Assembly (NCBI GenBank): GCA_934102215.1
Contig: CAKOSH010000003.1
Coordinates: forward strand, 59,187 to 123,186
Source: an uncultured Bacilli bacterium
GTDB lineage: Bacteria > Bacillota_I > Bacilli_A > RF39 > UBA660
DNA: 64,000 nt
Direction of reading: 5' to 3'
In this document: piece by piece, positions 19,503-21,417 of the stretch
Numbering within the stretch: position 1 is the stretch's first letter
Layout: the number at the start of each line of letters is the position of its first letter
The notes under the pieces: generated by a model
The model's database searches: none
What the model was told of the DNA's origin: nothing
What the model saw: only the letters and a program-made list of their open reading frames with translations
Position numbers and translations under genes: made by a program

Positions 19503-19560
19503 TACCAATTGAAATCATGCTTACTATTAAAGAACTTACTTCATAATTTATGAAAGATAA
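19503..19560. repeat. Degenerate 57-bp copy of the 3' end of ftsW (direct repeat partner of 20358..20415)
   Basis: CCAATTGAAATCATGCTTACTATTAAAGAACTTAC..ATAATTTATGAAAGATAA vs CCAATTGAAATCATACTTACTATTAAAGAACTACCGCCATAACTTATGAAAGGTAA inside ftsW; about 88% identity, and the intergenic copy does not maintain the reading frame. Confidence 0.7.
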
Positions 19561-19695
19561 AGTAATTTATCATAAGTCTTCATAATAATTATTTTTGTAT
19601 AGTTAAACTTATGAAATAATTAAAAAATAATCACCACTAATATTCCAGTATTAATATATTATTTATATATTTTAAATATTCTTTTATGGAGTTTT

Positions 19696-20232
19696 CTACT
19701 TTATTATTGTTATATCTGCTTCTTTTTTAGGCTTTGGTTTAAAATATTCTTCATTAAAATAACCTAATATACAATACCCTACTCCAACATAATTATTTGA
19801 AACATTCCATTCTTCTAATAGTTCTTTCCCTTCTTCTGTTTCAAAATCTTCTTTTACTCCAATAATTTTTTCTGAATCAACTCCATATATTTTAGTCTTA
19901 TTGTTTATTAATTTAATCGCTGTTTCTCCAATCATACTGTATTGTTTTACTTTCGTTTCATCTTCTAAAATTACTATTACTGTTGGAGCTCCATAAAATG
20001 AATCTGTATCTTTTCCTGTAACGATTGCATTAATCTTTGATAATTTCTCAATCATTTTTTTGTTTTGAAGTACAATAACTTTAAATGAGTCTGGACTTTC
20101 TGGTCTAATACAAATATCATCAAAAATTTGTTTTATTTCAGATACTATTTCTTTTAAATCTTCATCTTTGACTTGTTTTGTTTTATATTTTCTAATTTTT
20201 CTTTCTATTTGATTATTTGCTGTTTCGTTCAT
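19696..20232 (-). CDS. Nitroreductase-family protein
   Basis: N-terminal IERKIRKYK (RRSxRxF-like nitroreductase motif), about 178 aa, typical size. Confidence 0.6.
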   Translation of the reverse strand: MNETANNQIERKIRKYKTKQVKDEDLKEIVSEIKQIFDDICIRPESPDSFKVIVLQNKKMIEKLSKINAIVTGKDTDSFYGAPTVIVILEDETKVKQYSMIGETAIKLINNKTKIYGVDSEKIIGVKEDFETEEGKELLEEWNVSNNYVGVGYCILGYFNEEYFKPKPKKEADITIIK

Positions 20233-20331
20233 TATCTTTTCTCCTTCAATTTTAATTATAGCATACTTTTTTCATTTACTATCAAAGAAAAAACAATTTT
20301 ATTCTTATTTTTAAATATATGGCTTTAGATA

Positions 20332-21417
20332 TTATTTATTATTAACATTAAGAATTATTCCAATTGAAATCATACTTACTATTAAAGAACTACCGCCATA
20401 ACTTATGAAAGGTAAGGTAACTCCAGTGATCGGAACTAGTCCTACAACTACAGATAGATTTAATAATGTCTGAAACATAAGTAAAAATGATAATCCAAAT
20501 ATTAAATACTTACCATAAAGATCATTACAATCTATTGCTTTCTTAATTATATTATAAAATAAAATTATAAATAAAATTATTATTGTCAGTGCACCTATAA
20601 ATCCAAACTCTTCAGTTATTATTGAAAAAATAAAATCCGTTTGAGGTTCAGGAAGATAAAAATGTTTTTGTCTTGAACCAAGAAATCCAAACCCTAAAAG
20701 TCCTCCTGGCCCTATCGCATATAAACTTTGTATCATTTGAAATCCACTACCAAGTGGGTCACTCCATGGATCTAAAAATGAAGTAATTCTATCCATTCTA
20801 TAAGGTGCGATTAATATTAAAATAACTATACCAATTACACCTAGAACTCCAAGTTTAATAAATATAGAAAAGTCAGCACCACTTATAAAAATAAGTCCAA
20901 TTAAAGAACAAACAATTACCATACCAGTACCAAAATCAGGTTCCAACATAATTAGTCCAAAGAACAACAATATCACTAAAAACAATGGAACAATAAACTT
21001 AAAAGTATTTCTCTTGATTCTATCATTATTAGATAAATATTTAGATGTAAAAATTATTAATGATAATTTAGTTATCTCACTAGGTTGAAAACCAAAACCT
21101 AATATACCAAACCAACTTCTGCTTCCATTTCTAACACTACCTATTCCTGGTATTAAAACTAATATAAGTAAAATAAAACATACAAGTAAAAATTTATTAG
21201 AATGTTTTTTATACAAATTATAATCTATTTTAGAAAAAATAAACATCATAAAGATACCAATTATTAAGAAACAAAATTGACTAATAAAATATTTATAAGC
21301 ATTTCCATATTTGAAACTAGCCCATATATAACTACTTGAATATATCATAAGGGCACCTATTAAGGATAGTATTATAGTTGTAATAATTATTATTTTATTT
21401 CTTTTAATAAAAATCAC
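20332..21417 (-). CDS. ftsW: SEDS-family peptidoglycan glycosyltransferase (FtsW/RodA/SpoVE)
   Basis: 10-TM protein with conserved ...GSRSWFG..FQPSEITKL... and C-terminal ...LPFISYGGSSL... blocks. Confidence 0.85.
   Translation of the reverse strand: MIFIKRNKIIIITTIILSLIGALMIYSSSYIWASFKYGNAYKYFISQFCFLIIGIFMMFIFSKIDYNLYKKHSNKFLLVCFILLILVLIPGIGSVRNGSRSWFGILGFGFQPSEITKLSLIIFTSKYLSNNDRIKRNTFKFIVPLFLVILLFFGLIMLEPDFGTGMVIVCSLIGLIFISGADFSIFIKLGVLGVIGIVILILIAPYRMDRITSFLDPWSDPLGSGFQMIQSLYAIGPGGLLGFGFLGSRQKHFYLPEPQTDFIFSIITEEFGFIGALTIIILFIILFYNIIKKAIDCNDLYGKYLIFGLSFLLMFQTLLNLSVVVGLVPITGVTLPFISYGGSSLIVSMISIGIILNVNNK

Follow-up and report, generated by a model that had tools for sequence, protein, structure and literature searches.

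Why does the end of a cell division gene occur twice in the genome of an uncultured Bacilli bacterium, once in its proper place and once on the far side of a small neighbouring gene? The question is raised by a stretch of 64,000 nt (64 kb), hereafter called the window, in which the minus strand carries in succession mraY, ftsW, a gene for a nitroreductase-like protein (the cargo gene), the gene of an AAA14-type ATPase and clpB. The two copies of the ftsW end bracket the cargo gene, and the original prediction had taken them for the attL and attR scar of an insertion into the 3' end of ftsW. Our analysis supports this view with empty sites in close relatives, the recurrence of one boundary in other lineages and a cassette found near-identical in two species, and the copies are probably the junctions of a conservative site-specific integration by which a small circular cassette entered ftsW between codons G332 and V333. 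On the evidence of these comparisons, the same ftsW site appears to be a recurrent insertion hotspot across a clade of uncultured gut Bacilli.

The repeated ftsW end and the unit that it brackets

The ftsW gene (20332-21417, minus strand), of the SEDS family of cell division proteins, matches PF01098 from end to end (5e-110), scores 390.9 with TIGR02614 against a cut-off of 337.5 and adjoins mraY (21821-22813 in the gene list of the region). It is intact, and may start instead at the ATG at 21348, which gives the product of 338 residues reported by gene callers; this product has an identical sequence on 15 contigs. Gapped local alignment delimits a direct repeat of approximately 84 nt (19483-19566 and 20337-20421) with ~83-86% identity and a single gap of 1 nt near the stop-codon side, whereas repeat detection without gaps returns a pair of 68 nt (19498-19565 and 20353-20420) with 84% identity and a spacing of 855 nt. 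The repeat had previously been described as 57 bp long, about 88% identical and broken in frame. The gap accounts for the break of frame and 50 of 58 positions (86%) are indeed equal between 19503-19560 and 20358-20415, but the length was underestimated. That the repeat is real follows from its local score of 96, compared with a mean of 27.2 (sd 3.3, maximum 44) in 300 Markov-1 simulations. Moreover, the best alternative match in the rest of the window scores 34, and the 31-nt core of the repeat has two matches in the window, with none expected from 100 shuffles. The repeat and its spacer show no meaningful Rfam family, terminator or significant fold, and the possibility that the sequence is a common genomic motif finds no support in the window, where it occurs just twice.

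The right copy (20337-20421, minus strand) is the working end of ftsW and encodes V333-K361, the last 29 codons (VTLPFISYGGSSLIVSMISIGIILNVNNK), forming together with the adjacent core an attL-type junction. The left copy (19483-19566, minus strand) reads in the same frame as ITLSFINYEVSSLIVSMISIGKF followed by a stop, with GG to EV changes and a frameshift, and its similarity to ftsW resumes beyond this pseudo-stop only if 1 nt is deleted. It is thus a dead ftsW end, a displaced and decaying former tail that constitutes the attR-type junction. Its sequence is 82-83% identical to the ftsW tails of the window and of two relatives (L001 and L002) and is closest to its own lineage.

The unit defined by these junctions (19567-20421, 855 bp) consists of the ftsW tail, a promoter, one cargo gene and a non-coding arm of 129 nt. 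The replacement tail contributes two elements to FtsW, its final transmembrane segment and the conserved VTLPFISYGGSS motif. The promoter (20251-20269, minus strand), read from the sequence, has an extended -10 box, TGCTATAAT (hexamer at 20255-20260), and is followed by a GGAG ribosome-binding site. The distal arm (19567-19695, minus strand) ends with AAATTAC at the junction, shows neither a significant fold (z = 0.49) nor an Rfam match and has no similarity to the cassette arms of other lineages. If the unit were excised as a circle, its predicted arm-tail junction would be ...GATAAATTAC/GG/GTTACCTTACC.

The cargo gene (19696-20232, minus strand, 178 residues) is the sole credible open reading frame between the copies, as had been claimed. 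Its designation as a nitroreductase gene can be kept in part. The protein scores 17.8 bits with PF00881 (E 0.004), below the gathering threshold of 23.5, but homologues at 45-49% identity pass this threshold and carry PF00881 together with PF14512, and there are weak matches to the nitroreductase-family structures 3e10 and 5j62 (E ~0.002). The product thus seems best described as a divergent relative with the nitroreductase fold, not as a confirmed member of PF00881. One homologue, P0006, comes from a spore-forming Firmicute, where its chromosomal surroundings are ordinary.

To place this unit in context we compared 80 of 309 matched loci with 6-kb flanks, one genome per species, from uncultured gut and rumen Bacilli, most of them metagenome-assembled genomes. 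In L002 and L003, the FtsW of which is 94% identical, the site is empty, as the original prediction had anticipated for related genomes. The stop codon of ftsW leads directly to the promoter region of clpB, positions 17922-20334 of the window have no counterpart, and the left copy of the window aligns to their genuine ftsW tail. The islet is common to the window, its nearest relative Clostridium sp. CAG:524 (L001, of the same species), L082 and L087-L093, and it is present in all strains with identical FtsW. Its contents are eroded to different degrees: the cargo gene has a 1-nt indel with frameshift in L089 and L093; L001 has lost ~0.57 kb, so that the promoter and ~27 cargo codons are fused beside the displaced tail; and L082 and L083 lack 105 nt (19556-19660), which is most of the arm plus the first 11 nt of the left copy. 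The former description of a decayed islet agrees well with these losses. The left and right copies diverge by ~16%, of the same order as the 24% accumulated over two branches between the left copy of the window and that of L001, and the integration accordingly dates from about the separation of these strains or from an earlier time. Taken together, the sequences indicate an islet that is old and decaying in the window, with its cargo being lost in sister strains.

The original prediction had allowed that a relative with the nitroreductase gene in the same place but no repeat would speak against it, and L084 formally shows this arrangement, having ftsW, the cargo gene and clpB without a displaced tail. 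Compared with the window, its ftsW body is ~93% identical, its tail 75% and its cargo gene 87%. Because tail and cargo are far more diverged than the body, we read L084 as a separately recombined version that has lost the old tail rather than as the ancestral state.

One boundary within ftsW in several lineages

We then searched the loci by nhmmer with a profile built from the final 153 nt of ftsW, which retrieved extra tails 3' of an intact ftsW in L001, L023, L043 (two), L056 and L057. All of them start at profile positions 52-62, that is at (I)TG|VTLPF, and altogether seven displaced tails in six loci start at G332|V333. Similarity begins at TTAC-N-GG, in the codons of (I)TG, and continues into VTLPF, with zero similarity immediately upstream. 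In the window the corresponding recombination core would be I330-T331-G332 (ATC ACT GGA; 20422-20430, minus strand), where all displaced ftsW ends begin, and the crossover may be placed in the GG at 20423-20424. The displaced tails of L023, L043 and L056 retain an open frame and differ from the resident tail mostly by synonymous changes, including switches between TCN and AGY serine codons, which indicates that they were once working ftsW ends.

The cargo differs among these loci. L023 and the first cassette of L043 carry genes for proteins of 78 and 165 residues, the second cassette of L043 as well as L010 an ORF6N protein (PADLOC PDC-S05), L056 a protein of 281 residues with no Pfam or PADLOC match and L057 an AAA_14/DUF4143 protein (PADLOC PDC-S01). 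The most informative pair is that of L023 (6889-8094) and L043, both from rumen, which have 1,205 of 1,206 nt equal across tail, cargo and arm, while outside the cassette their ftsW sequences are ~82% identical upstream and the downstream regions ~50%. The identical block begins at ATTAC(C/A)|GGGG and ends at ATTACAGG|(AT/TG). On the left the two sequences last differ in the base that follows ATTAC, and on the right they first differ again in the base that follows ATTACAGG, so that both ends of the block fall on the GG of codon G332 and the junction is placed within 2 nt. A scan of all pairs of loci for tails far more similar than the ftsW body gave only this clear case.

The direction in which the units are stacked can be deduced from L043, which has two tandem cassettes with different cargo but a junction-side arm of 52 nt common to both at 86.5% identity. 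Its segment 8189-9206, comprising the first displaced tail and the ORF6N gene, shares 90.7% identity with the genuine tail and ORF6N gene of L010, compared with 75.6% for the ftsW bodies. Consequently, a tail moves together with the cargo located 3' of it, and a newcomer pushes the earlier cassette outward. By analogy with L010 and L043, the right copy of the window would have arrived with the cassette and the left copy would be the older, displaced end.

Other loci show further irregularities at the same place. The contigs of L030 and L071 terminate at the boundary or no more than one codon from it, as assemblies do where population variants diverge; that of L026 breaks off 63 nt beyond it. 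In L026 (6996-7059), L033 (6996-7394) and L028 (6990-7260) it is precisely at the hotspot boundary that the ftsW frame stops or changes. In L026 and L033, GGG TAA/TAG leads into related, non-tail sequence (TARGTCCT.C...GTAACTGA); ~390 nt take the place of the tail in L033, and L028 has a different tail and then a tRNA-Trp gene. These three could be truncated ftsW genes, another type of element or assembly artefacts.

The cargo protein of 165 residues (L023, 7511-8008; L043, 7613-8110) belongs to a very large conserved family without a Pfam domain, with 2,618 matches, many at 80-94% identity; in some Clostridia (L099-L103) its members lie at the edge of an element encoding a large serine recombinase and a Fic protein. 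The idea that it is a ToxN/AbiQ toxin with an RNA-repeat antitoxin gained no support, for it has no Pfam or PADLOC match and there is no tandem repeat.

Site-specific integration weighed against other explanations

In the mechanism that we propose, a circular unit of ftsW tail, cargo and arm would recombine at codon G332|V333, 29 codons before the stop of ftsW. The incoming tail would be fused to the ftsW body, so that this presumably essential gene stays intact, and the previous tail would be pushed downstream where, released from selection, it would decay into the left copy. Before this event, the previous tail of the window would have stood directly before the 33-bp repeats and the AAA14 module, as is the case in L034. 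The newest cassette would adjoin ftsW, with older ones shifted outward, and homologous recombination and deletions would subsequently reshuffle and erode the islet.

Which enzyme could perform this reaction? The original prediction stated that no integrase is present, and this was confirmed: phmmer with four queries (gamma-delta resolvase, Hin, XerD and the C-terminal domain of lambda Int) gave zero matches at E <= 10 among window open reading frames of at least 90 residues. A motif scan combined with phmmer on all open reading frames of the window and of 100+ loci found no recombinase in the window or in any cassette; the only matches across these loci were large serine recombinases within the gene of a penicillin-binding protein (PBP) in other lineages. 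No integrase-bearing element was found at ftsW in the 80 loci with their 6-kb flanks, nor in viral contigs. The suggestion that the repeated sequence might be met beside integrases elsewhere fared no better, for a scan of viral contigs for fragments of ftsW tails near integrases produced one locus, which is an ordinary Bacillus-like chromosome, and a metagenome search with the arm conserved between L023 and L043 had 0 matches. Since neither the cassettes nor the window encode a recombinase, the enzyme would have to act in trans. As to its class, the serine recombinase CcrAB of the staphylococcal cassette chromosome (SCC) exchanges strands at a 2-nt crossover, and the limits found at ftsW would fit such a crossover, as in CcrAB and DsiB; the confinement to GG is therefore suggestive of a serine recombinase.

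Several points weigh against this proposal. Neither a recombinase, nor a circular form, nor a full-size parent element has been seen, and the enzyme is hypothetical. The junction-side arms are dissimilar between lineages except for the terminal TTAC-N-GG, which is unexpected if one recombinase serves all of them. The junctions of the window are themselves too diverged (~84%) to place the crossover at the nucleotide level, so that the evidence for the exact site comes from other lineages, and some junctions there (L026, L028, L033) could be artefacts of assembly. The divergence between L084 and the window rises from ~50 nt before the boundary, which implies that homologous recombination also moves these units. 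Finally, no displaced tail is found 3' of the AAA14 gene, and the proposal does not account for the arrival of this older module.

Given these points, could the pattern have arisen without any dedicated recombinase? DNA from relatives might have been incorporated by RecA-dependent recombination, or by illegitimate recombination facilitated by homology, with ftsW and clpB as anchors, the duplicated tail having arisen once or a few times and then spread with its flanks. The lack of a recombinase in the window and the cassettes would be accounted for, the rise in divergence towards the tail and cargo of L084 has the pattern of a homologous-recombination tract, and the region between ftsW and clpB does vary among close relatives without tails (L001 has an open reading frame for a protein of 564 residues instead of AAA14, and L004, L005, L007 and L022 each differ). 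However, both ends of the block common to L023 and L043 lie on the same GG and no flank was transferred along with it, despite ~95 nt of tail homology being available; this counts against RecA exchange, which would be expected to leave variable flanking tracts. Moreover, arms that differ between lineages are incompatible with a single origin of the junction, yet all junctions lie at the same codon, and illegitimate joining would not return to a single position in at least four lineages. We consequently regard a purely homology-driven origin as unlikely.

A local accident is far less probable still. The original prediction had left room for a duplication-insertion event, either a tandem duplication of the ftsW 3' end or an illegitimate insertion of the nitroreductase gene with an accidental target duplication of 84 bp, neither involving a mobile cassette. 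The copies are direct repeats in the same orientation and the left one is closest (82-83%) to the tails of its own lineage, as such an accident would leave them. No insertion mechanism is known to produce target duplications of 84 bp. The occurrence of the same boundary in unrelated lineages with different cargo, in one of them as a tandem array, and the mobility apparent from empty sites and from a near-identical cassette in two species largely refute this explanation. It is scarcely credible, too, that a second SEDS gene (a rodA or spoVE paralogue) was once located downstream of the nitroreductase gene and then deleted except for the left copy. Although this copy reads in frame as a SEDS C-terminus, its similarity stops abruptly at codon 333 with nothing SEDS-like upstream, its nucleotide identity to the ftsW tails of its own lineage is too high for an old paralogue, and the fragments of other genomes are cut at this codon too; 0 of 80 loci contain a complete second SEDS gene there. 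Three specific mechanisms were also rejected or judged improbable. Against an IS608-type insertion 3' of TTAC speaks the base following this motif, which is not the same in L023 as in L043 and falls outside the identical block, and a transposon needs no copy of a gene tail; the region around the crossover has, as judged by eye, no convincing resemblance to a dif site of the Xer type; and copying by the AAA14 nuclease in the manner of a homing endonuclease is unlikely, since the identical block shows no co-conversion of flanks and most cassettes are without AAA14.

Site-specific integration is thus the reading that we retain, and a bolder extension of it is offered here only tentatively, as we would hesitate to favour it. 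Position 332/333 of ftsW could be the attachment site of a dedicated, integron-like cassette system of gut and rumen Bacilli, served by a recombinase, possibly of the serine type, encoded elsewhere in the genome. Through such a system, species would exchange single-gene cassettes equipped with promoters, many of these with candidate phage-defence genes (PDC-S01, PDC-S05) and each bringing a recoded tail of 29 codons that spares the essential gene. Integron cassettes indeed form promoter-proximal arrays of single-gene units without recombinase, at one attachment site and with the newest nearest. Unlike them, the ftsW cassettes have no adjacent intI and no attC-like palindrome (arm fold z = 0.49, with arms unconserved between lineages), and they bring along part of the target gene as well as promoters of their own; having neither attC nor intI, the system is not an integron. 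Tycheposons are islands at tRNA genes of Prochlorococcus that are defined by their own tyrosine recombinases. Like the cassettes at ftsW, they have cargo modules split by partial copies of the target, a hotspot extending over a whole clade and some modules without recombinase, but the ftsW cassettes show neither a tRNA target nor a tyrosine recombinase of their own.

Cis-mobilizable elements (CIMEs) are defined by the loss of genes for integration and transfer with retention of attL and attR (PMC5704250), and the ftsW unit shows the same combination, no recombinase and both junctions present, with the attR side degraded in the window. CIMEs related to ICESt1 and ICESt3 at fda of Streptococcus thermophilus (PMC5704250) similarly lack genes for integration and transfer, form tandem arrays by repeated site-specific integration and leave the target gene intact. 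They differ in that no related integrase-bearing element, either integrative and conjugative or integrative and mobilizable, was found at ftsW in the 80 loci, and the ftsW units are far smaller (0.85-1.5 kb, with one or two genes). In addition, two species share one of these units as a bare, near-identical cassette, and the duplication extends over as much as ~90 nt (29 codons), its length being due to a crossover far within the coding sequence. Further parallels are found with SCC and pseudo-SCC elements at rlmH (orfX) of staphylococci and with the ssrA islands of Dehalococcoides (PMC3146451), which combine a single-copy housekeeping target, tandem islands split by repeats of the gene 3' end and members without recombinase; the ssrA islands have 20-bp repeats and the serine recombinase DsiB, and have been likened to SCC by the authors who described them (PMC3146451). 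In these systems, however, the repeats are 15-20 bp, many islands measure 10-60 kb and recombinases lie beside attL, whereas the ftsW cassettes have none and their target is codon 332/333.

Among the papers searched, none describes ftsW as an attachment site. The elements described here differ from known islands by the ftsW target, the very small units, the absence of a resident recombinase and the long recoded gene end that comes with each unit. Should our reading be correct, a conserved stretch of an essential division gene would be the shared docking point for tiny cassettes without recombinase in a large clade of uncultured gut bacteria. A displaced fragment coding for VTLPFISYGGSS 3' of ftsW would then be a searchable metagenome signature of recently exchanged accessory or candidate defence genes. 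It would also point to a recombinase with a defined and conserved 2-nt crossover, of possible use for engineering in these organisms. The window itself has modest biological weight, for its islet is old, its far junction degraded and its cargo being lost in sister strains.

The AAA14 module, clpB and other variable sites

Beyond the left copy, where the AAA ATPase and its tandem repeats had correctly been located, the AAA14 gene (17976-19298, minus strand) encodes an ATPase with AAA_14 and DUF4143 domains. DUF4143 is a predicted nuclease domain classed as PD-(D/E)XK (PMC3424549). The protein matches the PADLOC model PDLC04786 (1.9e-132) over residues 1-436, the full length called for in candidate PDC-S01; the defence role of most such candidates awaits validation (PMC12988326). 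The gene is absent from L002, L003 and L084, is replaced by a different gene in L001 (the 564-residue open reading frame mentioned above) and lies directly after ftsW in the more distant species L034, in which ftsW is followed by the 33-bp repeats with AAA14 and then by clpB. The AAA14 module may thus represent a second, older insertion between the former ftsW stop and clpB, and a distant homologue is the cargo of the tail-flanked cassette of L057. Genes of the AAA_14/DUF4143 type, from at least two distant subfamilies, are found directly 3' of ftsW in five lineages, for example in L057 (7233-8441, in the tail-flanked cassette), L077 (7178-8398) and L009 (7192-7620, a remnant).

Tandem Repeats Finder detects 2.8 copies of a 33-bp repeat (19371-19461) upstream of the AAA14 promoter. 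This array is part of the AAA14 module and not of the nitroreductase cassette; it has 2 or 3 copies among strains with identical FtsW and is kept in L034 (7107-7195), where one half, AAAGTGGGTGCAAAAAGGTGCAA, is conserved and the other half variable. The repeats probably serve as binding sites for a protein. The array is also where contigs L090 and L092 end. A 19-nt block, AAAGTRTGCTATAATTAAA on the minus strand, occurs with 95% identity at 19313-19331 and 20251-20269 and holds the extended -10 of both the AAA14 and the nitroreductase-like genes, a block longer than a -10 box requires.

The clpB gene (15744-17840, minus strand, from the gene list of the region) forms the other side of the variable region. 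Its upstream sequence (17870-17912, minus strand) contains an inverted repeat resembling the CIRCE operator (controlling inverted repeat of chaperone expression), TTAGCACTC-N9-AAGTGCTAA, which overlaps a perfect TTGACA-17-TATAAT promoter of the sigma-70 type (12 of 12 consensus positions) and suggests that clpB is under HrcA control. This promoter region is the fixed far edge of the variable region, conserved as such in all relatives, and homology with L001, L002, L003 and L084 resumes there.

Variation is also seen upstream of ftsW. Large serine recombinases of 531-615 residues lie inside a PBP gene of the ftsI type in this cell division cluster, upstream of mraY and ftsW, in L080, L053, L055, L073, L079 and L042, and none is present in the window. 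In L080 (280-4220) an element of 3.9 kb splits the codons of GISVTPIQ, has CCAATACAAC on both sides and encodes, besides the recombinase, a membrane protein and a KAP-like P-loop protein; the PBP gene of L077 is intact, and L042 has a remnant of the recombinase fused to the C-terminus of the PBP. These elements resemble intervening elements of the 'skin' type. The gap between mraY and ftsW is variable as well, measuring 3.3 kb in L001 (2726-6000), ~0.4 kb in the window and ~70 nt in L002, and varying also in L012, L016, L024 and L027.

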